This document shows, in pieces, positions 989-14,729 of a stretch of 64,000 nt of DNA. The stretch is taken from the NCBI GenBank assembly GCA_965205865.1, contig CBDBHR010000010.1, forward strand, positions 32,001 through 96,000. Reading direction: 5' to 3'. Position numbers and translations under genes: made by a program. The first letter of the stretch is position 1, and each line of letters begins with the position of its first letter. Source of the DNA: a bacterium (GTDB taxonomy: Bacteria; SAR324; NAC60-12). Below the pieces are notes generated by a model. That model searched no databases, was not told where the DNA came from, and saw nothing but the letters and a program-made list of their open reading frames with translations.

Positions 989-1402
989 GATTCATTTCAA
1001 GGATTGATGTGAATGTAAGAGTATACAGATTTTTGCGTCATTTCCATGTCCTGATATCCCAAGTTTTCAAGGATTTGCTGTGGGTGGGGTGTTACAAAAT
1101 GACACCCTGCAACCAACTCGTGGAAAATGGCGACAGAGGGCGTCATTCTTCGAGCAACCCGACAATTCGTAAAGTGTTTTGCTGCTATTATAGCAAACAT
1201 CGTATCTCTTTTCGAGAAGTTACAAAGTTAGTCTTTTGTTTGAGCTGGGTTTCCGGAAAACTTTTTATCAGAATTGAAATAATCTCACAAACCATGTATT
1301 TTTTATATTATCGAGTCATTTCCTGTAGACGGACTGGCTTGCTGTTATGCCTTTTTTTCAAGAAACGTCGTATTCCCAATATTGTTGACTGAACATCCAT
1401 CT

Positions 1403-2263
1403 ATGTTATCAAAATTCACAACCTATAAAATTTCAAGAAAATCATTGCATAAATTCAAAAAGCAAGGATTCAGCGAAGAGAGTCTCAACACCCTGGCTGC
1501 GCTTGAAGAAAAATATTTTCCTTCCATGGAACAATTCCTACTCTATTTGGAAAAGCTGCCCAACAACGTGGAAATCCTGGAACGGAAAAACATGATCCTC
1601 AAACACACACGCAGCTATTTCCGTATGGATGGATGGATCACCCACAAATCAATTCGTGAATGGGTAGAAGCCTTGATATTTGCGGTAGTGGTGGCCATGA
1701 TTGTCCGCACTTTTCTCTTTGCTCCCTTTCGTATTCCATCCGGATCGATGATCCCTACCATTCAAATTGGGGATCAAATCTTTGCCACGATGTTTAGTTA
1801 TGGGATTCCGATTCCATTTACCGATATCAAATTACTGCGCCAACCGATCCAACGGGGAGACATTTTGATCTTCCCCTCCCCGCCGAACCCTTCCATTGAT
1901 TTTATCAAGAGAACGATTGCTCTGGAAGGAGAAGTGATTGAAATCCGCAATGACGAAGTCTACATCAATGATAAATTGTTACCGGAACCCTATGCTTTTT
2001 TCGACCCTGACAGTCGATCCGCCTCCCGCTTGCGGAATGTGAGCAACTTCGGGCCAATTACCGTGCCCAAAGGGCATATTCTGGCAATGGGAGACAACCG
2101 CTATAACAGTCATGATGGGCGTTTTTGGGGTTTTGTGAATATTAAGAAGGTCAAAGGAAAAGGTCAGCTGGTTTATTGGTCCAAGGACCACCGTAAAGGT
2201 CTGTTAGGTTTTTTCGATTTACAATCCTATCGTGTGAATCGTATTTTACATTTCTTGGAGTGA
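1403..2263 (+). CDS. lepB: Signal peptidase I with an extra N-terminal ~65-aa module
   Basis: [15 protein letters not shown] segment, IPSGSMIPT (catalytic Ser), DFIKR (catalytic Lys), [15 protein letters not shown]. Alternative TTG start at 1382. Confidence 0.95.
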
Positions 2264-2312
2264 ACTCCTTTGCCAAAGGCCTCAATTCGGTTGGTTCCAC
2301 ATCGATGAAATT

Positions 2313-3182
2313 ATGAAAAATATTGCGCGCAATGATCCTTGTCCCTGCGGGAGCGGGAAAAAATATAAAAAATGTCATCTCAAATTTGACCGCAAGAACC
2401 AACAGTGGGGCAAAAGCAACCGGTCTGGGATTATCGTCAAAAACCCGGAACAGGTGGTGGGGATTCGTCAAAGTTGTCAGCTGACCAGCAAAATTCTGGA
2501 TTTGCTGGAAGAGCAGATCCACCCGGGTATGACAACGAATGATATCAATGAGTGGGTTCATAATTACACCATTACGCATGGAGCTTATCCTGCACCCTTG
2601 AATTATCGTGGGTTTCCTAAAAGTGTTTGCACGTCACTCAACGATGTCATTTGTCATGGCATTCCCGACACAACCGTCATCCGTGATGGGGATATTTTAA
2701 ATGTAGATGTGACCTGTATCCTCAACGGTTATTATGGCGATTCGAATCGCATGTTTTGCATTGGGGAGGTGTCGGATGAGGCCAGCGCGTTGATTCGTAT
2801 TTCCAAAGAATGCCTGGAGTTGGGCATCGAGGAGGTCAAGCCCTTCAACACGATAGGGGATATCGGACATGTCATTCAACAGCATGCGGAACAGCATGGT
2901 TTTTCAGTGGTACGGGATTTTTGCGGACATGGCGTTGGCATCGAATTTCATGAAGATCCTCAAGTTCCCCACTATGGTGATCCTAAAAGCGGTCCCGTGT
3001 TGGTACCCAATATGGTTTTCACAATCGAGCCGATGATCAATATAGGGCGCTACGAAAGCCGGATTTTGGCGGACCGATGGACTGCGGTTACCCTCGATGG
3101 TTCCCTCTCCGCCCAATGGGAGCACACAGTCCTTGTCACGCAATCCGGTGTGGAGGTTCTAACGGCATCCTCATCGAATTGA
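2313..3182 (+). CDS. map: Methionine aminopeptidase type I with N-terminal SEC-C zinc motif
   Basis: [57 protein letters not shown]. Confidence 0.95.
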
Positions 3183-3264
3183 GATTTTTCCATGCCCTTT
3201 GCTATTGGCAATTCTACTCTGCCGCTTAGACAAACTGCTACATCACCCTTGGTTAAAGCAATAA

Positions 3265-3675
3265 ATGAAACAGAAAATTGTAAGCTGCGTTCTCATTTTG
3301 ACCTTTTTATTAGTAGCATTCGTGCTTAACGTCGCAGAAAAATCTGCCAGTCTCATAACCATTTCGGCATTGGAATCGGCTGCATTGATTGAGAAGAACA
3401 AAAACAATCCCGATTTCATAATTTTGGATGTGCGCACTGCCGAAGAATACGACGCGGTCCGTCTTATTGATGCAGAGATGTTGGATTTCCATTCTGCAAC
3501 CTTTACCGACGCGTTGAAGGAGTTGGATAAGGAAAAAACCTATCTCATTTACTGCCGGAGCAGGGTCCGTAGTAAAAAAATTCTCAGACTGATGGAAGAA
3601 ATGGGGTTTGAAATGGGTTACCATATGTTGGGAGGAATTTTGGCATGGCAAGCAGAGAATTTTCCGACCATCTGA
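3265..3675 (+). CDS. Rhodanese-like domain protein with N-terminal signal/TM segment
   Basis: ILDVRTAEEY, YLIYCRS, LGGILAW. Confidence 0.85.
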   Translation: MKQKIVSCVLILTFLLVAFVLNVAEKSASLITISALESAALIEKNKNNPDFIILDVRTAEEYDAVRLIDAEMLDFHSATFTDALKELDKEKTYLIYCRSRVRSKKILRLMEEMGFEMGYHMLGGILAWQAENFPTI

Positions 3676-3713
3676 AAATTGACGAGAGCAGTTCTATTCT
3701 AAGACAAATGGAG

Positions 3714-4163
3714 CTAAGGTCGTTTGGAAGCAATTTTGATTTTGCGAATGATTGACTGATGCAAGACAAGCACGGGCGGTCCTTGCGGGCGTCCCCAAAT
3801 CCAGGTGGCCAGGATCAATCCACCAAAAATCGTGTAACCCATACTGAAGACCCAGGGTTCTGCCTGGTAGAAGACGGTTTTGTGCAGCCAATAGGCAACG
3901 AAACTCCCGGAATAGGAAATCTTATCTGCCATCCCGCGTAGCTCATGTTCCCAGATCGTCAAAGGGCAAATAATACCCATCCAACTCTGGATGACGACAA
4001 TGCCGATTGCCAGTAAATGCGCGAGCCTGAACCAGAAACTACGTACCCAACGCCATTGTCTCAGCAAGCCCATCACAATCAATATCAGTCCAAACACCAC
4101 AAATGCAATGAAGCTCGTGTGAAGAATCAAAACAAAATCAGCAAGCAAAGAGTATGGATTCAT
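3714..4163 (-). CDS. DUF2784-like membrane protein
   Basis: LADFVLILH...FVVFG, LAHL, ICPLTIWE motif. Confidence 0.8.
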   Translation of the reverse strand: MNPYSLLADFVLILHTSFIAFVVFGLILIVMGLLRQWRWVRSFWFRLAHLLAIGIVVIQSWMGIICPLTIWEHELRGMADKISYSGSFVAYWLHKTVFYQAEPWVFSMGYTIFGGLILATWIWGRPQGPPVLVLHQSIIRKIKIASKRP

Positions 4164-4215
4164 CTTGATTGGTCACTGTTTGAAAAAAGAACACTTCCCC
4201 CACATTTTCTATGCT

Positions 4216-5364
4216 TCAGGGGACGATTTGGTAAATGTTTCCCATCAACCCCACCACATAGACTTCTCCAGCTTCATCTTCTCCGAAACTGGAAATATTG
4301 ATGTTTGTATTTATCAATAGACTCAGGTCCAGCAGGCGACCATTTATTTGGGTCAATCCCCAGATTTTGCCTGATCCAAAATCCCCGTAAAGGTAGTTGC
4401 CCTGCAAAGATGGGATCGCCATCCCACGGTAGACGAAACCGCCTGTGACCGAGTAGCCTTCGCTGTGGTCATATTCAACTAAGGGACGCTGCAACCCCCT
4501 CTGGGAGCAACCGAATGACGGTGCATAGCAATGATCGCCTTCCATGATATTCCATCCGTAGTTTTTCCCTTTTTCAATCAGATTGATCTCTTCATAACGA
4601 TTTTGTCCCACATCGCCCGCATAAAGTTCACCGGTCAAACGATCGAAGCTGAAACGCCAGGGATTTCGCAGCCCATAAGCCCAAATCTCAGGAAGGATAT
4701 TTTGAAGGCCCACGAAGGGATTATCTTTAGGGACGGCATAAGCGGTTTTACCGCTTTCACGGTTGATATCGATACGTAGAATGGCTCCATGCAGAGTTCT
4801 TAAATTCTGCCCATTGCCCAAAGGATCTCCGCCTGCGCCGCCATCTCCCATGCCAATGTACAAGTAGCCATCGGGACCGAAGGCAAGTTGACCTCCATTG
4901 TGATTGCTGTATGGCTGTTCAATCTCAAGAATGCGAACTTCACTGTCTGCCATCGCCTGGTTCGGATTTTGGGAAAGCGCACGAAATTTGGAAATGACGG
5001 TACGCCGGGGCAGTCCGACTGTATAATTGACAAAGAAAATGCCATTTTGCAAGTATTGTGGATGAAATGCCAGGGAAAGCAAGCCTTCCTCATTTCCCCA
5101 GCTGAGGACTCGTTTGCGGATATCCAAAAAAACATGGGAGACCGTCCGTCCTGTGGCGGGGTCTCGGTCAATGACCTGAATCCTCCCTTCCTGCTCCACC
5201 AAGAAGATCCGGCCGCTTCCATCCCAGGAGGCCGTTAGGTGAACAGGGCGATCTAACTCCACAGTTTGAAATACCTGCTTCAAACCCAGGGCCCATGGAC
5301 CAGGATAAAAGCTGCAAGAGATGGAGAACCCCACCAATATGATTCCCTGAACGATGATTTTCAT
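4216..5364 (-). CDS. PQQ-dependent glucose/sorbosone dehydrogenase family protein
   Basis: EEGLLSLAFHP, NHNGGQLAFGPDGYLYIGMGDGG, YGLRNPWRFSFD. Confidence 0.92.
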   Translation of the reverse strand: MKIIVQGIILVGFSISCSFYPGPWALGLKQVFQTVELDRPVHLTASWDGSGRIFLVEQEGRIQVIDRDPATGRTVSHVFLDIRKRVLSWGNEEGLLSLAFHPQYLQNGIFFVNYTVGLPRRTVISKFRALSQNPNQAMADSEVRILEIEQPYSNHNGGQLAFGPDGYLYIGMGDGGAGGDPLGNGQNLRTLHGAILRIDINRESGKTAYAVPKDNPFVGLQNILPEIWAYGLRNPWRFSFDRLTGELYAGDVGQNRYEEINLIEKGKNYGWNIMEGDHCYAPSFGCSQRGLQRPLVEYDHSEGYSVTGGFVYRGMAIPSLQGNYLYGDFGSGKIWGLTQINGRLLDLSLLINTNINISSFGEDEAGEVYVVGLMGNIYQIVP

Positions 5365-5664
5365 ACCACTTTCATTGCAAAGGTGACCAGGAATTTTCCT
5401 ATCATACCATTTCTCACTTCAAATACCATCAATTCCCAACCCTTTTCTCCATAAAAACAGCCTTGCCCACACAAAGCGGATTCTAATCTTCGCAATGTTT
5501 TTTCCCCTTAAGGCGAATCTATGGTGCCTTAACGAAAACCTCATCCTCTTCATTTTTTTCTGGAATCGACAAATCTTACACGATAATATCGATTGATCAC
5601 ATCATCACGGATCAAAAGTAAAAACCCGCGATAATCTCGTGAAGAAAAAGACAGAAAGTAAATA

Positions 5665-6039
5665 ATGCCACAAGCAGCAAAGGAGATTTGGGTTACAATA
5701 GGCAGCGCGGACGAAATCAATATCGACCAAATCAAGGCTGTTCAAGTTGGACCGGTACGAATCATTCTCGTACGAACAGAAACAGGTTATTTTGCCCTGG
5801 ACAGCCTCTGTCCTCACCAAGGAGTGCCTTTGAAAGACGGCACCGTCTGCAAGGGCGACAGAATTCGTTGTGTCTGGCATGGCTATTTGTTTGATCTGAA
5901 TACTGGTAAAGGACATGGCAATGAGTACGAAGTGGAGACCTTCCAAATTCGAGAAAGTTATGGCACCATTGAAGTATTGTTGCCAAAGCAAATGCGCAGG
6001 TGGGACTCTCTGTTAAGTGGTTGCAAAGCCCTTCTCTGA
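5665..6039 (+). CDS. Rieske [2Fe-2S] ferredoxin
   Basis: CPHQG...CVWHG ligands, FDLNTG. Confidence 0.88.
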   Translation: MPQAAKEIWVTIGSADEINIDQIKAVQVGPVRIILVRTETGYFALDSLCPHQGVPLKDGTVCKGDRIRCVWHGYLFDLNTGKGHGNEYEVETFQIRESYGTIEVLLPKQMRRWDSLLSGCKALL

Positions 6040-6053
6040 ACGATATCGAGACT

Positions 6054-6653
6054 ATGAACTCGCAGAATCCGGACAGAACTCGCTGGAACAAAAAATATTC
6101 TCGGAAAGGGATGGAAAGCTGGGAATCTCGTCCTTCAGACTGGTTGCGAAGCCATCATTCTCTTTTGAATGCGCAAAGGCGAGGAGCAGCGTTGGATGTG
6201 GCCTGTGGCAATGGGCGCAATTCATTTTTTTTGGCTGCCATGGGCTTTGAAGTGGATGCTGCCGACATTTCGGATGTGGCAGTCGTTTGGTTGCAGCAGC
6301 AAGTTGCTCAAAAGGTTGTGTCCATCCAACCCATTCAGATGGATTTTGAAAACAATCTCCTTGCCAAGGAAAAATATCAAGTAATCCTTTGTTTCAATTA
6401 CCTGGAGCGTGGTCTTTTCCCTGTCCTGCAAGACGCATTGCAGGCTGGAGGACTTTTGTTTTTTGAGACTGCCTATCGTGACGACATCACCATCTTGGGT
6501 AGCAGCATGAATCCACGGTATGTGTTGGATTACAATGAATTGCTGCGGGAATTTTCGGATCTGCGTATTCTTGAATATCAAGAAAAAATCGTTTATGTTG
6601 CGGAGCTTACTAAAAAGAAAGCCTTGGCCAGTATAGTGGCTCGCAAAATTTAA
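6054..6653 (+). CDS. Class I SAM-dependent methyltransferase (TehB-like)
   Basis: [27 protein letters not shown]. Confidence 0.88.
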
Positions 6654-6673
6654 TCGACTGCGAGGAGAGCGAA

Positions 6674-7405
6674 ATGCCATTCCCCCACCCATTGAGACGC
6701 GCCACAAGGCTTGGTTGGATTCTGATATTCGCTTTTACAGGCTTGTGGGGAAATCCATTATGGAGCCAGGAGTGGCAGTCTGCGCGTCAGGAGATGGTAC
6801 GGGTTCAACTCGAGAACCGGGGCATTCAGGATCCTGCTGTCCTACAAACCATGCGGGAAGTACCCCGACATTTATTTGTTCCGAAAGAACTCGAATTCGT
6901 GGCCTATTCAGACCGTCCTTTACCAATAGGTTCAGGACAGACGATCAGCCAACCCTATGTGGTGGCCTTGATGACAGAATTGCTCGATCTGCGCCCAGGG
7001 ATGAAAGTTTTGGAAATCGGCACGGGATCAGCGTATCAAGCAGCAGTCCTTGCGACCTTGAATATGGAAGTCTATTCAATTGAGATCATTCCGGAATTGG
7101 CCAGAGGAGCGATAGCTCGCTTACAAAGCCTGCAATTTCCGGTTTCCGTCAAAAATGCAGACGGTTATTACGGCTGGTCGGAGCATGCCCCTTTCGACCG
7201 TATCATCATCACCGCCGCCGCCAATCATGTACCCCGCCCCCTCCTCAACCAATTGAAACCGGGCGGAAAACTCGTGCTTCCCCTGGGACCGACCCTGTTT
7301 TATCAAACATTGACGATTGTCACTGTGGATGAAGACGGTCAAACCTCGGTTGAATATTCCATCGATGTCCGCTTTGTTCCCATGACTGGCAAAGTCCGGG
7401 AATGA
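6674..7405 (+). CDS. pcm: Protein-L-isoaspartate O-methyltransferase
   Basis: [45 protein letters not shown]. Confidence 0.95.
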
Positions 7406-7410
7406 GCCCC

Positions 7411-9771
7411 TCATCCATTCAGGCGAAATGCTGACAGCCAGGCAACTGTATAACAGAGAGTAGCTGCAAGGAACAGTGAGGAGAGTCCGGCGAATTGGGC
7501 CAGTAACAATGCTCCGATGGGACCAATCACTGAAGCGCAGCCATTGAGGCACCATGCCACGGCAATACGATTTTTCGTGATTTCCGAATCGGGATCCCGA
7601 GCTGAAATGGCAACCACCCCACGGGGGAAAGGAATGCCCATCAAAATCCCCAACCCTCCCACCGCTATTACAGCAACTGCCAGGCGTACGGGGAAATCAC
7701 TACCAGCCAAGACGGACAAAAATTCAGAAAATCCAAAAAAATACGCCACCAGGATTACAAGCAGGAGCCCTTGACCTTGGTTGAGCCGCCGCACAGGCAG
7801 ATAGCGACTGACGAAGGATCCAATTCCGGATGTCAGTAAGAGGGTACTCAGCACCAGAGCCAAGGAATAGACCGGTTCTCCGAGAAACAAAATCAGTTTC
7901 TCAAACAAAGCGATTTCCACTCCCATAAACCCCAAGCCAATCCAAAAGAAATAGGACATCTTCCAGCTAAACAACGATTTTGTTTGACGATGCGCCAGGA
8001 ATGGCAACAACAGCAATACCAGTACGATGAGGAGAACTTGTAGCAGCAGAAGAGGCAACAACAGTCCTCCCTCTACCAGACCTTCCCATTTGCGTCCAAG
8101 GATTTCGTAGGTGTCGCTCAATCGGTCCCATCGCAGGAAATGAAAAAAGAAGGGCTTGTCATCGCTCACCGGAGTCAGATCGAACAAACTTTGTTCATGA
8201 AATGCGCGAGCATCCTGTAGCAATTGCCGCACGGCGTCTGCGTAAATCGGTATTGCAAAACGGTTGATCCGGTTGGCGTCTTCCTTTTTCATGTCGGGGT
8301 AGTAAACTGGAGTGTATCCACGCTGCTCACAGAATTGCACGAACAGTTTTTTATCCCTGTCTGACCATTTCCGGGCGGATCCCACAATCATCAGGGTGGA
8401 GATGGTACGAAAAATTCCCAGTTGCCGGCTGGGTTGCCAGTTCAGTTCTTTCATGGCGGCAATCAAAGTGGCGATCCAACGGAGTTCTCCCCTTGGAGGA
8501 GGCAATAAATAGCGATGCACGCCAAACCACCCTTCCGCTGTCAAACGCTGAAGCAGAGTCATGTTACCTTCCACGGTTTCCAGGGAGCTTTCCTGCAAGG
8601 CGTGCATTCCTGTGGAACCCGTAGGCAGGGCCCCTTCCAAGGAAACCAAAATACGATCATAGTGTTCTTCCGTGCGGGAAAGCAGCGTCCGTGTTTTTTC
8701 AGCAACAATGGTTATATGAGATAGATTGTTTTGCTCGCTCAACCAGCGGGCAATCAATTGGTTTTCGGTTTGTACGACGATTTGCGGTACTTTGGCGTTG
8801 ACCGCAGACAGCACTTCCTGGCCGCCAATCACCTGGAGGATCAACACATTTCCGGGAACCGGCGGAAGCTTATAAATCAGCCAAGAAGGCAGGTTTTGGG
8901 CATAATCCAAATGATCCACCTCCCACGAGCTGAAGGCCGTCAGTCCGTCTCCGTCAATGGTGATGCCGATTTGCGGAGGCAAGGATTCCCGGTAATTGAG
9001 ACTCAATCCGGGAGCGGTGCGGACTAAGGGACTTTGCAGCCAATCCACTCGTGATGCCGCATCCCATGTCGTTTGCAAAAGGCGGCTATTGGATAATTTC
9101 AGTGCATGAGGGAGACTCTTATAGGGACTCATCTTCCACTCCGGCAAACCAACGAAATGCCAATATCCCAGTAATCCTCCTGCCAGGCAGACCAGAAGTG
9201 CCCGTTGGGACCATTTGGACATCAGGCAACCGGTTGCCAATCCGCCAATCAAAGCAGTGAAAGCCAGCCACTCCATTTCAAGCCAGTAAGGTGCAATGAG
9301 AAAAAAACAGGCACAGCCGGCGCCTGCTCCAATGAGATCGCAACCATACAAGGAAAAAGTCTTCTGGGGGTATCTTCGCAGCAATAGATTGATCGTCAAT
9401 CCGCTGAAGAAAAAAGGGACTGCCAACAGCAGGAAGAGCACATACAAATATCCCCACTGCCAGGCGGCAAGCGTGAGCAGCACCGGATCAAAAGGAACTT
9501 GCTGAAAGAGCGCAAACAAGGGAAGAATCGTGACTGCAAAGAAAAGGGACGGCCAGGCAGGGTGGGAAGGCCTCTTGAAGAGGAGCGAATAAGTTCCGGA
9601 AAACGCATATCCCAACAAGGCGCAGCTGATGATCAAGAACGCAAAGTGATACCAAAACCGGATGGCCAGCAGCCTCGACAAGCCGATTTCAAACATCAGG
9701 GCGGCAAATGTCTGAAAAAAAATGCCGACGCCAATGCGGAGGGGCATCTTCATTGTTCGCGTTATTGACAA
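7411..9771 (-). CDS. Multi-pass membrane protein with spermidine-synthase-like central domain
   Basis: N- and C-terminal TM bundles (FEIGLSRLL, LYGCDLIGAG, GLGFMGVE, GIPFP, AWCLNGCASV) and a PVSDDKPFFF motif. Confidence 0.75.
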   Translation of the reverse strand: MSITRTMKMPLRIGVGIFFQTFAALMFEIGLSRLLAIRFWYHFAFLIISCALLGYAFSGTYSLLFKRPSHPAWPSLFFAVTILPLFALFQQVPFDPVLLTLAAWQWGYLYVLFLLLAVPFFFSGLTINLLLRRYPQKTFSLYGCDLIGAGAGCACFFLIAPYWLEMEWLAFTALIGGLATGCLMSKWSQRALLVCLAGGLLGYWHFVGLPEWKMSPYKSLPHALKLSNSRLLQTTWDAASRVDWLQSPLVRTAPGLSLNYRESLPPQIGITIDGDGLTAFSSWEVDHLDYAQNLPSWLIYKLPPVPGNVLILQVIGGQEVLSAVNAKVPQIVVQTENQLIARWLSEQNNLSHITIVAEKTRTLLSRTEEHYDRILVSLEGALPTGSTGMHALQESSLETVEGNMTLLQRLTAEGWFGVHRYLLPPPRGELRWIATLIAAMKELNWQPSRQLGIFRTISTLMIVGSARKWSDRDKKLFVQFCEQRGYTPVYYPDMKKEDANRINRFAIPIYADAVRQLLQDARAFHEQSLFDLTPVSDDKPFFFHFLRWDRLSDTYEILGRKWEGLVEGGLLLPLLLLQVLLIVLVLLLLPFLAHRQTKSLFSWKMSYFFWIGLGFMGVEIALFEKLILFLGEPVYSLALVLSTLLLTSGIGSFVSRYLPVRRLNQGQGLLLVILVAYFFGFSEFLSVLAGSDFPVRLAVAVIAVGGLGILMGIPFPRGVVAISARDPDSEITKNRIAVAWCLNGCASVIGPIGALLLAQFAGLSSLFLAATLCYTVAWLSAFRLNG

Positions 9772-10157
9772 TCTATAGACTTCTCGAAAATTTTCTTATC
9801 AGGAAAATAGGAGTCCGCCCCTCATCGCCAGGACCGGGACTGTCCTTCCATTTAATTGTTTGCCGGGAGGCTACAGTTGCGTGATTGGGTTATTTTTGTT
9901 TTACTAAAACAGCATCAATTTATATAGTACCTAAATCCTGCAATTAGATGACAATCAAACATGGAAATGGTAATATACTCAAATAGTTAACACCAGAATC
10001 AACATTTTAAGAGTAAATCAAATCAAAACTATCAAAGAAGTATGGAATCGTTCCCACGTTTTATGTAAGATTTTGTCGGTGGTCGGCATGCCGATTCGAC
10101 CGCTACGCGGTGGCAAGGGACGCAAAACGACGGACGAGGAGTCAGAGGAGAAAAAAC

Positions 10158-11000
10158 ATGCGCGCAACCTATATTTCAACCGCAGATCTGGCCCCCCATC
10201 TCCAGGACCCGGATTGGGTCGTGATCGACTGTCGATTCGTACTCGATGACAAGGAACAGGGACGGCGGGACTACCACAAAGGACACATTCCTCAAGCGCT
10301 ATATGCGCATCTGGAAGAAGACCTGTCGGCTCCTGTGGTTCCACAAAAAACCGGACGGCACCCTTTACCGGATCCTTTTGATTTTTCACGAATTTGTTCA
10401 TACTGGGGAATTGATGGCAAAGTCCAGGTCGTGGTTTATGACGACGCGATCGGTGCCTTTGCTGCCCGCCTGTGGTGGATGCTACGTTGGCTGGGTCATC
10501 ATCAGGTTGCCGTATTGGATGGAGGATGGCAGCAATGGCAGAAAGAGAATCGCCCGGTTTCCGATGATGTTCCCAGTCGGACACCACGGTCTTTTTTGCC
10601 CCTGTTGCGCTCCTGCTTGCATTTGAATGCGAATCAAGTCCTGAAATTACTGGAGGATCCCGATTACAGGCTATTGGATGCCCGTGGAGCGGATCGCTAT
10701 CGTGGAGAAAATGAAACCATCGATCCGGTGGCAGGACACATTCCCCATGCCCTTAGCGCTCCTTATATGGAAAATGCAAGCCCCGACGGCAGGGTTTTGC
10801 TTCCGGCTGCCCTGCAAAAACGCTTTCTTGCCATGTTGGGTCACGTGAAGTCTGAGCAAACTGTTTGTTATTGTGGTTCCGGAGTGACGGCATGCCACAA
10901 TCTTTTGGCCATGGCACACGCAGGTTTGGGAGATGGAAAATTATATGCCGGTTCCTGGAGTGATTGGATCACGGATCCCAAGCGTCCCATTGCCTGTTAA
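10158..11000 (+). CDS. sseA: Thiosulfate/3-mercaptopyruvate sulfurtransferase (tandem rhodanese)
   Basis: GHIPQA, GRHPLP, LDGGW, CYCGSGVTAC, LYAGSWSDW; GAGGAG RBS before ATG 10158. Confidence 0.92.
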   Translation: MRATYISTADLAPHLQDPDWVVIDCRFVLDDKEQGRRDYHKGHIPQALYAHLEEDLSAPVVPQKTGRHPLPDPFDFSRICSYWGIDGKVQVVVYDDAIGAFAARLWWMLRWLGHHQVAVLDGGWQQWQKENRPVSDDVPSRTPRSFLPLLRSCLHLNANQVLKLLEDPDYRLLDARGADRYRGENETIDPVAGHIPHALSAPYMENASPDGRVLLPAALQKRFLAMLGHVKSEQTVCYCGSGVTACHNLLAMAHAGLGDGKLYAGSWSDWITDPKRPIAC

Positions 11001-11165
11001 AATCCGCAAAAATTGGACTTGTCTTTTTTTCATGCTAAACTACCGACATATTATGAATCGTGGTGTTGACGAAACACGGCACTTGGAGCAAATCGCCGGT
11101 TCACGGCAGTAATTCAACCATCACTGGAAAACACCAGCAGTAAGTCATTTAGAAAAGATAGATTC

Positions 11166-14100
11166 ATGTTACAGTCCCTTTTGACTAAAAGCACTCGTTT
11201 GTTTGGCAATGAAAATGAAAAAAACCTCAAGCGCTACAAAAAGATCGTAGCGCAGATCAATGCGCTCGAGCCGGAGATGCAAAAGCTGAGGGACGATGAA
11301 TTCCCTCTAAAAACAGCAGCATTCAAAGAGCAAATCTTTGCCAATTCATGCTTCACCCTCACTGAACGGAGCTTGTTCCGCATGGAATCGGAACTCTCAT
11401 CAAAGACGGTGTGGAAACAACTGAGAAGTTTGAAAGGCAAGGAATTCCAATCCCGGCAAGAACTGCTTGCTGAAATTGAAAAGCGGGTGATCGAGGAAGA
11501 AGCCGAAGAGATCCTCTATGCTGCCAGGCGCCAGATTCAGCAAGACGCCAATACCGTACTCGATGAAATCCTACCGGAAGCATTCGCACTGGTGCGGGAA
11601 GCCAGTGTTCGCACTCTCGGAGAACGTCATTACGATGTGCAGTTGATTGGTGGCATGGCACTCCATGAAGGCAATATTGCCGAAATGCAGACCGGGGAAG
11701 GAAAAACGCTGGCATCCACTTGTCCGGCCTATCTCAATTCCCTCACAGGCCAAGGGGTTCATATCGTCACTCCCAATGACTACCTAGCCAAACGGGACAG
11801 CGAATGGATGGGGCAGATCTACCATTTCCTGGGAATCATAGTGGGACTGATCCAGCATGATAATCATCCGACACAGCGTCAGAAAAGTTACCGGGCAGAC
11901 ATCACCTATGGTACCAACAACGAGTTCGGCTTCGATTATTTGCGAGACAACATGAAGATGGATCTGGCCGATTATGCGCAGCGTGATTTCCACTATGCCA
12001 TCATCGATGAAGTGGACAGCATCCTGATTGATGAATCCCGTACCCCCCTGATCATCAGTGGGGCCACTGACGACAACATCGAAAAATACCGAATCGTCAA
12101 CAAACTGATTTACGACCTACAGCGTGAAATTCAAAAAATTGAAGTGCCATTGCTCCAGGATCACGAAGCTTATGACATTGATCCCGAATGGGAACTCAAG
12201 GAAGACCGCGACATTGTCCGTGAGGGCGATTATACGCTGGATGAAAAATCCCGGCATGTGGCCTTGACCGATCGTGGAGCTGCCAAAATTGAAAAGCGTC
12301 TGGCCGCCTTTGAAAGCTACCAACTCACAGATCAAGAAATCCAACAGTTGGAATCGGAATTCAATGAAGAGATAGTGATCCGGGCATTGAAAAGTCTGGC
12401 TAATATTGAATTCAAACAGCAAGACGCATTATTGGATACCCTGTCCGCTAAAATCGACGATGTCAACGAGCAGATCTCATTCCAGCTACCCTTCAAATCA
12501 CGAATCCTCCAGTTGGCCCACAAAGGCATGCTTTTGCCAACTTATCGACTTTCTCAGGATAGCCTCGAGCACTTGGAAGCAAATGCGGAGTTGGAATCTG
12601 TTTTACCGGTGCTCACCAGTCTCAAGGATTTGGAATATGAAACCGAAGAAGCATTTTTTGAAGCCTTGCAAAGCACTTTGGGCGCCGAAAAAGCCTCTCA
12701 ATTCCGATCCACGATTTTCGCTGAAATACAAGTTTTGAAAAGTTTGTTCGACCGGGTGAACACGCCGGTTTTGCACCACGTCAATCAAGCGCTGAAGGCC
12801 CATTTGGTCTTCAAAAAAGATGTGGATTATGTCGTCCAGAACGGACAGGTGGTCATTGTCGACGATTTCACAGGTCGACTGATGCCCGGACGTCGCTACA
12901 GTGACGGGCTGCATCAAGCCCTGGAAGCCAAAGAAAAAGTCCGCGTTGAAATGGAAACCCAAACCCTGGCTTCCATCACCTTTCAAAACTACTTCCGGCT
13001 TTACCGGAAAATCGCCGGAATGACCGGGACGGCTGAAACTGAAAAGGAAGAATTCAAAAAAATTTACAACCTGGGTGTGGTGGTGATCCCCACCCATCAA
13101 CCCGTGATTCGCCAAGACAAACCAGATGTGATTTATAAAACGCAAACGTCCAAATTCAACGCCATCGTCAAGCAAGTACAGTCGCTTCATGAGCGGAGAC
13201 AACCGGTCTTGGTGGGAACAGTCTCCGTGGAAACATCCGAACTGATCAGTCATCGTCTACAACAAAAAAGCATCGAACACCGAGTGCTTAACGCAAAATA
13301 TCATGCTCAAGAAGCGGAGATTATAAAAAACGCAGGTCAATTAGGATCGGTAACGATCGCCACCAATATGGCGGGTCGAGGAACTGACATCAAACCGGCA
13401 GCGGAAGTCTTGGAACTTGGCGGAGTTTTCATTTTGGGAACGGAGCGGCACGACAGCCGCCGCATCGACAATCAGCTCCGGGGACGATCCGGACGACAGG
13501 GAGATCCGGGCGAATCCCAGTTCTTCCTTGCAATGGAAGACAATCTTTTACGCATTTTTGGGGGTGAAAAGCTGGCCAAATGGATGGATCGCTTCCAAAT
13601 CGAAGAAGACTTGCCCATTGAACATGTGTTTGTTTCACGGGCCATCGCCAATGCCCAGAAAAAAGTGGAATCGATGCATTTCAGCGCCCGTAAAAGTCTA
13701 CTCGAATACGACGATGTCATGGAAAGGCAACGAAATATTATTTATGACAGACGCCGGGCAATTTTAAGCGATGATATCCATCATTGCTTTTTGGATATGT
13801 GCGCAGAGACTATCGAAAATCTGATGGACCAATTCTGTAGTGACAAATTCCAGGATCAGTGGAAGCGAGATGAATTTACCCAAGAATATTTTCATATTTT
13901 CAACTCACACTTGGATGAGTCGTGGGAAGATCCTTCACTGCGTCGGGAGGAGATTGTCCATAGGCTTTTTGAGATCACTGAAGATTGTTACCAAATTAAA
14001 ATCGATCGCTTCAAGGAGGAATTTTTCAATAAATACAATGAATCAGAACTGTTCGAAGTAGCGGGGATCTACCTGCATATTATTCTTCATGAAAACGCCC

Positions 14101-14729
14101 GCTCCGGCAATGCGGCAAACTGGGAGTTCCCACATCCTCAAATGCCGCAGGTCCGGCAATTTTTTGAAAATTGGCTCAAGCGCTTCGAAAGCTATTGCCG
14201 TAACAAACAGATGAATTCCCGAGTGGAAGCCATTGCACCCTTCCTCAATGAAATTCCTGATGATTACCGGCAACAGTTTTTTGCAAGGTATATGCAGTTC
14301 AAGCAGGAAATTTTTGAAACCCTCGTACTGTTAGTACAACGTCAGAATCTCTTGCTCACCAATGACGAACGCTGGAAAAACCATTTGTTGGCCATGGATC
14401 ATCTCAGAGAGGAAGTGGGCTTGGCAGGCTATGCCCAGAAAAAGCCCATTGATGAATACCGTCGCAAAGCATTTGTCTTGTTCGAAAACCTTATTTCGGA
14501 TATTGCCCGCGAGTCGACCACTCAATTTTTCCATCGCAGTAAACTGCCTCATCCACGTTATTTGTTCTTCCATGTAGATCCTCGCCAGGCCTCCGAAGCC
14601 GTTTATAGCCATGGGAATGAAGCCACATTGGTCAATAAACCCAAGCCCGCTGACCGGAAAAAAGTCTACGTTTCCAATCGGGAACGCAAAAAACAGCGTG
14701 CCAGACGCAATAAAGCCCTTTCGGTTTGA
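11166..14729 (+). CDS. secA: Preprotein translocase ATPase SecA (1187 aa, several insertions)
   Basis: MQTGEGKT, DEVDSILIDE, GRRYSDGLHQALEAKE, TNMAGRGTDI, RRIDNQLRGRSGRQGDPG, WKNHLLAMDHLRE. Confidence 0.97.
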   Translation: MLQSLLTKSTRLFGNENEKNLKRYKKIVAQINALEPEMQKLRDDEFPLKTAAFKEQIFANSCFTLTERSLFRMESELSSKTVWKQLRSLKGKEFQSRQELLAEIEKRVIEEEAEEILYAARRQIQQDANTVLDEILPEAFALVREASVRTLGERHYDVQLIGGMALHEGNIAEMQTGEGKTLASTCPAYLNSLTGQGVHIVTPNDYLAKRDSEWMGQIYHFLGIIVGLIQHDNHPTQRQKSYRADITYGTNNEFGFDYLRDNMKMDLADYAQRDFHYAIIDEVDSILIDESRTPLIISGATDDNIEKYRIVNKLIYDLQREIQKIEVPLLQDHEAYDIDPEWELKEDRDIVREGDYTLDEKSRHVALTDRGAAKIEKRLAAFESYQLTDQEIQQLESEFNEEIVIRALKSLANIEFKQQDALLDTLSAKIDDVNEQISFQLPFKSRILQLAHKGMLLPTYRLSQDSLEHLEANAELESVLPVLTSLKDLEYETEEAFFEALQSTLGAEKASQFRSTIFAEIQVLKSLFDRVNTPVLHHVNQALKAHLVFKKDVDYVVQNGQVVIVDDFTGRLMPGRRYSDGLHQALEAKEKVRVEMETQTLASITFQNYFRLYRKIAGMTGTAETEKEEFKKIYNLGVVVIPTHQPVIRQDKPDVIYKTQTSKFNAIVKQVQSLHERRQPVLVGTVSVETSELISHRLQQKSIEHRVLNAKYHAQEAEIIKNAGQLGSVTIATNMAGRGTDIKPAAEVLELGGVFILGTERHDSRRIDNQLRGRSGRQGDPGESQFFLAMEDNLLRIFGGEKLAKWMDRFQIEEDLPIEHVFVSRAIANAQKKVESMHFSARKSLLEYDDVMERQRNIIYDRRRAILSDDIHHCFLDMCAETIENLMDQFCSDKFQDQWKRDEFTQEYFHIFNSHLDESWEDPSLRREEIVHRLFEITEDCYQIKIDRFKEEFFNKYNESELFEVAGIYLHIILHENARSGNAANWEFPHPQMPQVRQFFENWLKRFESYCRNKQMNSRVEAIAPFLNEIPDDYRQQFFARYMQFKQEIFETLVLLVQRQNLLLTNDERWKNHLLAMDHLREEVGLAGYAQKKPIDEYRRKAFVLFENLISDIARESTTQFFHRSKLPHPRYLFFHVDPRQASEAVYSHGNEATLVNKPKPADRKKVYVSNRERKKQRARRNKALSV

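Follow-up and report, generated by a model that had tools for sequence, protein, structure and literature searches.

A Promiscuous, Unnamed Helical Domain Inserted in SecA and Signal Peptidase I and Greatly Expanded in SAR324 Bacteria

In the window, i.e., the whole 64-kb stretch of SAR324 DNA that was analyzed, a genuine domain of about 60 residues that has as yet no name occurs four times, in the proteins SecA and signal peptidase I (LepB). This domain is promiscuous, occurring both as single in-frame insertions in the loops or at the termini of unrelated, often essential proteins and as tandem arrays, and it has been greatly expanded in the SAR324 lineage. Moreover, three tandem copies make up part of the Cas7.4 insertion region in the solved structure of Cas7-11 from Desulfonema magnum. 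The module is best read, with a probability of roughly 0.55, as a domain that folds autonomously and is a largely passive insertion or spacer in surface loops, and not as a coupling tag specific to the Sec machinery.

The Four Copies in SecA and LepB

The two host genes and the features within them are the following:

1382..2263, + strand: lepB, encoding signal peptidase I (293 aa, start codon TTG); one-module host (ORF list)
1424..1610, + strand: module in the N-terminal extension of LepB, aa 15-76 (translation, independent profile, AF2 model)
1649..1705, + strand: sole predicted transmembrane (TM) helix of LepB, aa 90-108 (Kyte-Doolittle scan, score 1.85)
11166..14729, + strand: secA, 1187 aa; three-module host (ORF list)
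11337..11543, + strand: SecA insertion 1, N-terminal motor domain, aa 58-126; encloses copy 1 (11352-11525)
12309..12527, + strand: SecA insertion 2, preprotein-binding domain (PPXD), aa 382-454; encloses copy 2 (12318-12520)
12540..12734, + strand: SecA insertion 3, PPXD, aa 459-523; encloses copy 3 (12543-12729)

A sequence-only reading of the window had proposed one shared module in these four places, and the peptides it quoted are the exact translations of 1424-1610, 11352-11525, 12318-12520 and 12543-12729. Pairwise similarity alone is not significant, as phmmer comparisons between the four copies give E-values of at least 2.1 and the other copies are 18-26% identical to the first copy. 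Leave-one-out profiles, built from three copies each, give only weak matches to the SecA copy omitted (domain E 0.014, 0.065 and 0.3), and the profile from the three SecA copies does not recover the LepB copy. The decisive test is a profile built independently, from 266 copies among the global matches described below, which excluded SecA and LepB hosts as well as copies at least 50% identical to the own copies of the window's genome. Searched against the complete set of 44,104 stop-to-stop ORFs in that genome, it finds SecA copies 1, 2 and 3 with domain E-values of 1.5e-9, 7.2e-7 and 8.3e-12, the LepB copy with 1.6e-9, and six further copies, against no match with E<1 among the reversed ORFs. 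The proposal of a single module in both proteins is thereby upheld. Mere chance likeness of amphipathic helical linkers, which the pairwise values and the missed LepB copy had left some room for, is refuted by this profile and by two independently built structure models that land on the same solved repeat (7zoq_B), while the same length and motifs also recur throughout 271 copies.

The window's SecA contains all SecA Pfam domains (SecA_DEAD, P-loop_SecA, SecA_SW and SecA_PP_bind). Alignment with 14 other SecAs confirms that the three segments are clean, in-frame insertions, private to the window's protein in this comparison; insertions 1 and 2 are gapped in all 14 comparison SecAs, and the short linker between copies 2 and 3 aligns with a native loop. 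The match to PF01043, the PPXD model, is split in two stretches, consistent with the location of copies 2 and 3 within the PPXD that had been claimed for them. The insertion sites are loops whose length varies among other SecAs. The inserts are seen only in the window's genus and a few related genera, between which orthologous copies are stable, and the nearest insert-free SecAs come from related lineages. RNA-library contigs from two studies read through all junctions: one (X17 record 9) spans 11253-12173 unbroken, through insertion 1, and another (X16 record 7) spans 12271-12828, through the PPXD insertions. Joints skipping a module are absent from the contigs of both studies.

In LepB, the Peptidase_S26 domain is matched at aa 91-266 (Pfam, E 7.5e-48). 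As had been noted from the sequence, the module lies ahead of the TM helix; because this is the only one predicted, the module is probably cytoplasmic, assuming an N-in topology. An N-terminal module is also found in seven LepB orthologue loci of relatives, which were fetched via their module matches.

Fold, Conservation and Selection

Structure prediction shows the domain as an autonomously folding, compact bundle of a short β-bridge and five helices. The AF2 model of SecA copy 3 has a pLDDT of 93.5 and a pTM of 0.75; that of the LepB copy, built from LepB orthologues only, reaches 80.1 and 0.56. Both models have the same best match, residues 1138-1199 of 7zoq_B, with a Z-score of 7.8 for SecA copy 3 (rmsd 1.9 Å, 61 aligned residues, 30% identity) and of 7.1 for the LepB copy (rmsd 1.8 Å, 60 aligned residues), so that modelling of the copies, suggested earlier as a check, speaks for a common fold. 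The module is 58-67 aa long and is marked by a start motif [FY]-x-[LI]-T-x-x-S-L, a mid motif L-x-x-L-K-[ND]-x-x-[FY] and an end motif I-L-K-H-A, with F/Y conserved at the beginning and A at the end.

Among 271 full-length copies, the conserved positions are hydrophobic or are cap and turn residues (T4, G15, P17, N/D29 and G47), and no charged or polar residue is invariant. Several polar positions are moderately conserved, i.e., K23 (47%), K28 (47%), Y54 (69%) and H61 (44%). The net charge differs by copy, being basic in LepB and acidic in SecA. In a comparison with an 88%-identical orthologue, dN/dS is about 0.15 (0.144/0.933) in the modules vs. about 0.05 in the rest of SecA. This shows that the modules are constrained and not neutral, as a specific function would also make them.

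Hosts and Distribution

Profile iteration within the window's genome converges on 10 robust copies in eight proteins: SecA (three copies), LepB, an MsbA-like ABC exporter with its copy in the TM1-TM2 loop, an LptA/C-like protein, LptD, an ArnT-like (PMT_2) glycosyltransferase, an M16 peptidase and an antiporter-family protein (Na_H_antiport_3). Seven of the eight are envelope or membrane proteins. By prediction, the inner membrane has copies on either side, about half of them in the periplasm, with SecA in the cytoplasm.

The module is present in 70 of 88 SAR324 genomes, including all 44 of one family and 18 of the 19 of another. Nearly all relatives examined are positive (30/31), with 2-32 matches per positive genome, while the five outgroup genomes contain none and a phylum sample centred on a Desulfococcus-titled genome has one positive among 201. 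A global search yields 1,826 protein-cluster representatives at E≤1e-3, 357 of them at E≤1e-10. The best 150 of the 1,826 contain 1-13 copies each at the cut-off applied, and 65 of these 150 also match another Pfam family (searched in three batches, with cut-offs of 1e-5, 1e-8 and 1e-10). Tandem arrays are frequent and reach a maximum of about 13-15 copies.

Most annotated global hosts are again envelope or membrane proteins, among them LptA, PBP1, MreC, AcrB and TssG. The annotated hosts further include periplasmic binding proteins, PPIases and a T4SS coupling protein, as well as RecG, sigma-70, a methyltransferase, RAMP/Cas7 and STAND-WD40-TIR-caspase proteins. With at least eight unrelated host proteins in one genome and such a spread beyond it, the promiscuous mobile domain that had been offered as one explanation is supported.

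No Pfam or NCBIfam family names the module, which the sequence-only reading could not assign to a named family either. The only Pfam family with a recurrent signal is DUF2795 (PF11387), to which 3 of 37 module copies show a weak match (best E 0.011) limited to the central helix-turn part. One 9-copy array protein scores 30.4 bits against a cut-off of 25, as the sum of partial matches (profile positions 23-48), and none of the window's copies attains the cut-off. The DUF2795 model matches none of 41 module-bearing SAR324 genomes vs. 3 of 14 control genomes.

The Repeats of Cas7-11

A search of PDB sequences with the module profile matches Cas7-11 of D. magnum (7ZOL/7ZOQ) at E 2.6e-13, with three tandem copies at residues 1074-1129, 1139-1197 and 1204-1260 of chain B that pack inside the solved insertion region. 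These repeats are the same domain by sequence and structure and are likewise inserted in a host domain, here of a CRISPR effector from another phylum. In its available part, the report on this protein (PMC9935389) neither describes these residues as a repeat family nor ties them to other proteins. A figure legend in the same report has the Cas7.4 insertion-1 subdomain bound by crRNA spacer segment 2, and if the repeats fall in this subdomain, there may be RNA contact there. The INS domains of Cas7-11 from D. ishimotonii and S. brodae have no profile match at E≤1 among the PDB sequences. According to the accessible text of a preprint, D. ishimotonii Cas7-11 still cleaves after deletion of its INS domain, whose role is called 'a complete mystery' (bioRxiv 10.1101/2024.08.01.606276); this result is not strictly transferable to the module because that protein lacks a profile match.

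A Passive Insertion Domain and Its Alternatives

A self-contained fold would allow the module to be inserted in surface loops, as in the SecA motor domain, the PPXD and the TM1-TM2 loop of the ABC exporter, or to be added to a terminus, as in LepB, with the host unharmed; the module would be tolerated there because it folds autonomously. The copies would have arisen by old duplication and in-frame recombination instead of through a currently active DNA element. Purifying selection would then act mainly because an unfolded insert damages its host protein, and the tandem arrays would probably serve as stalks or spacers of variable length. Conservation confined to core and turn positions, copies on both sides of the membrane and the variable length of the SecA loops argue for such a passive role, and the dispensability of the INS domain for cleavage in D. 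ishimotonii Cas7-11, a related protein, may by analogy point the same way, as far as the accessible text goes. On the other hand, the envelope and membrane lean of the hosts could reflect shared function rather than tolerance, and the fairly conserved polar positions and a possible RNA contact in Cas7-11 may also count against passivity.

A general interaction module is possible, though rather doubtful. Analogous to small helical interaction domains of the SAM type, it would bind itself or one common partner and thereby co-localize or scaffold its carriers, e.g., the machines of envelope biogenesis. The richness of the hosts in such machinery (Sec, Lpt, MsbA-like, PBP1, MreC, AcrB, TssG), the purifying selection and the tandem packing in Cas7-11 agree with this, as does a weak fold likeness to five-helix bundles of the SAM, HRDC and PWI types, which are all-helical and of similar size (Z 3.4-4.3). 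However, these bundles give no sequence signal, their Z range is common for helical models (values <5 are within chance for small helical bundles according to the guidance of the structure tool), and the module has an N-terminal β-bridge and a motif set of its own. Moreover, a single partner or homotypic network cannot serve all copies, since both compartments of the same cell are predicted to hold them; a conserved polar surface residue is not found among the 271 copies, and unrelated cytoplasmic proteins (RecG, sigma-70, methyltransferase, Cas7) are hosts too.

Binding of a ligand or nucleic acid is improbable; examples would be a contact with RNA, as for the insertion in Cas7-11, or, in envelope hosts, with the membrane or LPS. 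The crRNA contact of the insertion-1 subdomain given in the available part of PMC9935389, several moderately conserved basic positions and the many membrane-associated hosts would fit it. The shift in net charge from basic in LepB to acidic in SecA, the missing invariant polar residue and the periplasmic hosts, which have no nucleic-acid substrate, do not.

Known in-frame intervening sequences offer two further comparisons. Inteins, like the module, occur within essential proteins, and their splice junctions carry Cys/Ser...His-Asn motifs. The module, in contrast, measures only 58-67 aa, has F/Y and A at its ends, interrupts variable loops of its hosts instead of conserved active-site motifs and gives no intein Pfam match. 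Rickettsia palindromic elements are short selfish repeats inserted in frame in many unrelated genes, housekeeping genes included, and are kept in the mature protein. If the module were likewise the coding footprint of a mobile element, its fold being secondary, this would account for the same unit of about 186 bp standing in frame in many unrelated, even essential genes, for copy numbers that range from 0 to 32 matches among related genomes, and for an 8-nt word common to both junctions of the PPXD insertion. Such selfish DNA is nonetheless an unlikely source, as the module is conserved as a protein fold, strongly and with confident prediction, and not as DNA. At the nucleotide level, the copies are on average 39% identical, falling to 32% at third positions vs. 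25% expected; none of the 11 copies has hairpin potential (mean z -0.21, range -1.52 to +1.02), and target-site duplications that would convince are not found, three of the five junction pairs tested having no junction repeat. These features favor old over active DNA. Orthologous copies are, furthermore, stable between genera, and the module, unlike the Rickettsia elements, forms long tandem arrays.

A Sec-specific tag, the other explanation proposed at the outset, is very improbable. Here, the cytoplasmic N-terminus of LepB would dock on the SecA modules and couple translocation to signal-peptide cleavage. Contact is topologically possible, as the LepB copy and the three SecA copies are all predicted to be cytoplasmic, and lepB and secA share the window. 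The enrichment in secretion or membrane proteins that was suggested as a check exists as a tendency towards envelope and membrane hosts. However, no more than four of the ten robust copies lie in Sec proteins, about half are predicted to be periplasmic and thus apart from the cytoplasmic SecA, and the scatter of matches over unrelated proteins leaves a Sec-specific role unsupported and favors a mobile domain. The SecA inserts are moreover seen only in a few genera, and the seven module-bearing LepB loci include genera for which no three-copy, SecA-sized frame is listed. Lastly, the LepB copy is no nearer to the SecA copies than to other copies; its best partners in both nucleotide and amino-acid sequence are the LptA/C-like and M16 copies.

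Host proteins and insertion sites

The module, a helical domain of about 60 residues, occurs once in signal peptidase I and three times in SecA of this SAR324 genome, whose assembly measures 4.74 Mb. Copies 2 and 3 of SecA lie in its preprotein-binding domain (PPXD).

Features of the window that host the module
1382..2263, + strand, lepB (signal peptidase I), ORF of 293 aa with PF10502 Peptidase_S26 at aa 91-266 (7.5e-48); module copy at 1424-1610
11166..14729, + strand, secA, ORF of 1187 aa; module copies 1 to 3 at 11352-11525, 12318-12520 and 12543-12729

Both hosts have the domain content expected of them. The DEAD-like motor, PPXD, wing/scaffold and P-loop domains of SecA are all present in Pfam (PF07517, 7.9e-123; PF21090, 3.5e-76; PF07516, 3.3e-47; PF01043, 1.4e-34), and the S26 catalytic domain of LepB is preceded by one TM-like segment at aa 90-108 in a hydropathy scan. 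The four segments translate into exactly the peptides quoted in the sequence-only reading, which had also described the SecA copies as in-frame insertions. This description holds, since module-less SecAs are gapped at all three sites: in an alignment of the window's SecA with 18 other SecAs, aa 58-126, 382-454 and 459-523 are gaps in 14 other full-length sequences. Among these 14, L041-L044 (L044 being titled SAR324) represent the nearest lineages without the inserts. All three modules are common to the three closest SecAs (L038-L040). Identity of the window's SecA is 88% to that of a MAG chromosome and 70-73% to those from records titled 'SAR324 cluster bacterium'. The PPXD insertion sites are loops of variable length in other lineages too. 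SecA-sized frames with three module matches were additionally found in four related genomes (G001, G004, G007 and G016). LepB orthologues with the same N-terminal module were found at seven loci, one from the order's second family, a count that is not a frequency because the loci were fetched through module hits.

The module as one protein family

Compared pairwise with phmmer, the four copies do not match significantly (E 2.1 or worse), and their identity to the first copy is 18-26%. Leave-one-out profiles of three copies each gave the withheld SecA copies domain E-values of 0.014, 0.065 and 0.3 and missed the LepB copy. Searched against 44,104 ORFs, the four-copy profile picked up a fifth copy that was not among its training sequences, in an ABC exporter encoded on a different contig (E 4.6e-7), and iterative searching of the genome settled at 10 copies in 8 proteins. 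An independent profile was built from 266 copies taken from global hits only, after removal of 5 out of 271, namely copies from SecA/LepB representatives and copies at least 50% identical to those of this genome. It scores SecA copies 1-3 at 1.5e-9, 7.2e-7 and 8.3e-12 and the LepB copy at 1.6e-9, scores six further copies in this genome as well, and gives 0 hits at E<1 on reversed ORFs. These scores, together with the clean control, confirm that a single shared module is present in both proteins.

An ORF with a DciA domain just upstream of the window (L007, G000:C10:29206-30384) contains a module-like stretch (E 0.34 in the in-genome iteration), which may be a degenerate copy. It was rejected as a member of the family, as the independent profile gave no match at E<1.

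Fold and relation to Cas7-11

With an alignment of 37 copies as input, AlphaFold2 predicts SecA copy 3 to consist of a short beta-bridge and five helices (mean pLDDT 93.5, pTM 0.75). Foldseek returned nothing from the PDB at E<=0.001. In an exhaustive structural search (VIA-align) over 48,161 chains, the top rank went to residues 1138-1199 of 7zoq_B, with 61 of 62 residues aligned at an rmsd of 1.9 Å (Z 7.8, 30% identity), followed by a runner-up at Z 5.3 and all others at 4.3 or below. The LepB copy, modelled from LepB orthologues only (pLDDT 80.1), matches the same segment with Z 7.1 and rmsd 1.8 Å over 60 aligned residues. Structure prediction, which had been proposed as a check, thus converges: both models share their first match, among the same 48,161 chains, and also their second. 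The latter, 9qqk_A 437-496 (Z 5.3 each), is situated inside a much larger enzyme, a GH161 phosphorylase, and shows no similarity at the sequence level; it may be either a look-alike without common origin or a far-diverged insertion of this fold.

The first match belongs to the Cas7-11 (Craspase) of Desulfonema magnum. When searched with the profile, the PDB sequences yield the same protein (7ZOL/7ZOQ, E 2.6e-13), with tandem copies at 1074-1129, 1139-1197 and 1204-1260 in its insertion region, and no convincing match beyond these two entries. The window's copies belong to the same family as this repeat, by the independent profile as well as by the fold of both models. For the Cas7-11 of D. ishimotonii, a preprint describes an INS domain whose removal leaves cleavage intact and whose role is 'a complete mystery' (10.1101/2024.08.01.606276). 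Since the module profile did not match the D. ishimotonii protein in the PDB, this deletion result transfers to the module only by analogy.

Distribution and array length

Of 31 related genomes, 30 are positive with an 11-copy profile, at 2-32 matches per positive genome. Across the phylum the same profile is positive in 70 of 88 genomes, unevenly over its families (f1 44/44, f2 18/19, f3-f5 0/4, f6 1/1, f7 6/19). The 37-copy profile matched none of 5 outgroup genomes; in the phylum sampled around a Desulfococcus-titled genome it matched 1 of 201, through three tandem copies in one frame. A homologue search with a three-copy protein gave 3 proteins at E<=1e-5, query included, one of which is a 'conserved hypothetical protein' of Candidatus Magnetomoraceae bacterium gMMP-15; in the ESM Atlas the best score for a three-copy protein was 0.87, below the meaningful level of 0.9. 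Worldwide, an exhaustive HMM scan across 1.84 billion cluster representatives hits 1,826 at E<=1e-3; of these, 357 reach <=1e-10 and 22 reach <=1e-30. The top 150 of these hits have 1-13 copies each at the cut-off used, many in tandem arrays.

Match counts vary widely across G000-G030, from 0 or 2-8 in genomes of 1.6-3.9 Mb to 32 in a 5.1-Mb and a 7.6-Mb genome. Module number does not simply track assembly size, as a 12-Mb assembly has 4 matches.

Proteins resembling LptA/LptC have one copy in this genome (L002), five each in array-bearing frames of two relatives (L014 in G008 and L024 in G010, for which orthology to L002 is not assumed) and six each in two global LptA-type representatives (P0007 and P0009). 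Array length in LptA-like hosts therefore changes quickly, which might alter the reach of the Lpt bridge. More generally, the variable array lengths point to duplication and recombination at the level of the protein module.

Hosts and their compartments

Besides SecA and LepB, the hosts in this genome are an ABC exporter (ABC_membrane and ABC_tran, with the module between TM1 and TM2), an LptA/LptC-like protein, LptD, a PMT_2 (ArnT-like) glycosyltransferase, an M16 peptidase and an Na_H_antiport_3 protein. From a hydropathy scan and canonical family topologies, the SecA copies and the N-terminal LepB copy are predicted to be cytoplasmic, and those in the ABC loop, LptA/C, LptD, M16, the antiporter loop and the C-terminus of the glycosyltransferase extracytoplasmic. 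Copies in both compartments make one shared partner in a single compartment unlikely.

Globally, Pfam (cut-offs 1e-5, 1e-8 and 1e-10) assigns an additional family to 65 of the top 150 hits and none to the other 85. Among the envelope, membrane or secreted hosts are LptA-type (6 copies) and PG_binding_1 (6-10 copies) proteins, cyclophilin and parvulin PPIases, TM2, periplasmic binding proteins, SecA, a LepB with 4 copies, AcrB, a T4SS coupling protein, TssG (3 proteins), PBP1, MreC (2 proteins), MFS and ABC permeases, HlyD-type proteins, NfeD, subtilases, FG-GAP and Laminin_G surface proteins and a TcA-like protein. Among the cytoplasmic hosts are RecG (with three copies separating its helicase lobes), sigma-70, a methyltransferase, a molybdopterin enzyme, RAMP/Cas7 proteins (2) and STAND/WD40/TIR/caspase proteins (9). 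A test for enrichment in secretion or membrane proteins had been proposed. Global hosts do lean to the envelope; no single pathway accounts for them.

The earlier suggestion of a tag coupling Sec components finds no support, as hosts are mostly non-Sec and copies are predicted on both sides of the inner membrane. The other option offered, a promiscuous mobile domain at the protein level, proved right, given its spread over 8 proteins in this genome and over the phylum and global clusters.

STAND NTPase/WD40/TIR/caspase hosts make up 9 of the 65 Pfam-annotated hits (P0022, P0071, P0072, P0077, P0116, P0117, P0131, P0140 and P0144). This architecture is typical of conflict and defence systems, and two more hosts are the RAMP/Cas7 proteins.

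Comparison with known families and elements

It had been stated that the module could not be assigned to a named family, and this stands: neither Pfam nor NCBIfam covers it. Pfam gave only sub-threshold noise for the four copies and for the 37 copies, and in NCBIfam 10 module-rich proteins or copies came nowhere near a cut-off. The sole recurrent weak Pfam signal, DUF2795 (PF11387), appears in 3 of 37 copies (best E 0.011). Membership was rejected, with zero window copies matching at the 25-bit gathering cut-off; the sum of partial matches brings one array of 9 copies to 30.4 bits. The DUF2795 model is positive in 0 of 41 SAR324 genomes, whereas 3 of 14 controls are positive. Against SAM/HRDC-type bundles the module models score structural Z of only 3.4-4.3, and no Pfam match links the copies to these domains. 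No published description was found under SAR324/SecA insertions, promiscuous in-frame domains or PPXD lineage-specific insertions in the literature outside subscription journals.

In-frame insertion into many unrelated genes (8 hosts here, dozens of families globally) recalls the Rickettsia palindromic elements. The likeness is in phenomenon only: unlike those elements, the module has neither a nucleotide-level repeat family nor hairpin potential. Codon-aligned copies have a mean pairwise nucleotide identity of 39%, and third positions agree at 32% versus 25% expected by composition. Folding energies of 11 copies gave no sign of hairpins relative to dinucleotide shuffles (MFE z -1.52 to +1.02, mean -0.21). 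Of the 5 junction pairs, 2 have a word in common between their windows, of no more than 6 nt or 8 nt. The low nucleotide and third-position identity, the lack of hairpins and the shortness of the junction words indicate that the spread is old, and there is no sign of an active DNA element. As target-site duplications the 6-nt and 8-nt words were rejected, being probably due to chance; the 8-nt word, TTGAAAAG, is common to the two junction windows of the PPXD insertion (12312 and 12747).

Inteins, judged by splice-junction residues and a Hint domain of at least about 130 aa, do not resemble the module at all. Modules measure 58-67 aa, begin with F/Y (99%), end with A, T or V and have zero Hint or intein Pfam hits, and contigs from RNA libraries keep them.

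Selective constraint and possible roles

In the comparison with the orthologue of 88% identity, dN is 0.144 and dS 0.933 over the three SecA modules (ratio about 0.15), compared with dN 0.055 and dS 1.07 (about 0.05) for the rest of SecA; amino-acid identities are 76% and 90%, respectively. In two more distant orthologues dS is saturated. Informative positions in 271 full-length copies are hydrophobic (F/Y1, L/I3, L8, L11, L24, L27, F/Y32, F38, L42, I46, Y54, I58, L59) or lie at caps and turns (T4, G15, P17, N/D29, G47, A62), and no charged residue is invariant among these copies. The pattern is that of a scaffold that maintains its fold, and not of a catalytic site or one for specific binding; a surface of moderate conservation is possible.

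The reading we favour, at a probability of roughly 0.55, is that of a self-folding, largely passive insertion or spacer domain that has expanded in SAR324. The module would be tolerated in surface loops and at termini of many proteins, and purifying selection would keep it folded. A role as an interaction module is less likely; a predicted complex of the SecA tandem modules with the LepB module scored 0.00 against a mark of 0.32, which, without controls, is evidence neither way. Less probable still is a reading of the module as a lineage-wide assembly code, by which SAR324 and a few filamentous or multicellular Desulfobacterota would mark their envelope-biogenesis machines with a tag that self-associates or is commonly recognised. 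Here, separate cytoplasmic and periplasmic networks would cluster the tagged machines (Sec, signal peptidase, MsbA-Lpt, PBP1, MreC, efflux and secretion systems) into shared biogenesis zones, and the Cas7-11 insertion would be a borrowed copy. If the module did mediate interactions, this would be a new way of organising bacterial envelope biogenesis.

As a named family the module is new, and it connects to a so far unexplained region of a CRISPR effector whose structure is solved. It has about 1,800 clusters and lies outside Pfam and NCBIfam, its solved example having never been named, and through it the 'mysterious' insertion region of D. magnum Cas7-11 acquires an evolutionary identity. One small fold has repeatedly colonised essential conserved machines without being removed, including SecA (three times), LepB, LptD, the MsbA-like exporter and, elsewhere, RecG, PBP1 and MreC. 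This repeated colonisation therefore provides a clean natural data set on insertion tolerance, useful for engineering sites in SecA or Cas7-11. It also flags SAR324, an abundant uncultured lineage of the ocean, as having unusually remodelled envelope machinery.

Additional observations on secA

RNA-library contigs from two studies cross every SecA module junction and zero joints skip a module, with the caveat that DNA can occur in such libraries. A contig of run X17 (record 9) spans 11253-12173 and one of X16 (record 7) 12271-12828; contigs of X18 and X19 partially cover the PPXD inserts and their junctions. The uncovered parts in X17-X19 and the sole joint, 11587->11898, are all outside the modules. 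Window positions 11862-11977 have very high depth in all four runs (up to about 490), with many short pieces and loose ends, which suggests a pile-up of conserved SecA motor motifs from other organisms and not a property of this gene. As the joint ends in this stretch, nothing is drawn from it.

In the C-terminal wing/scaffold region, SecA has another lineage-specific insertion, its fourth, of 72 aa (window 14019-14234, aa 952-1023), where at least 80% of the 14 comparison SecAs show a gap. This insertion is about module-sized and has no match to the module profile at E<1. Furthermore, a segment of about 25 aa in the PPXD region (window about 12153-12230, aa about 330-355) is common to L038-L045 and wholly or mostly absent in distant SecAs, of which L055 and L056 retain about 12 residues; it is an older lineage-specific expansion adjoining the module sites.
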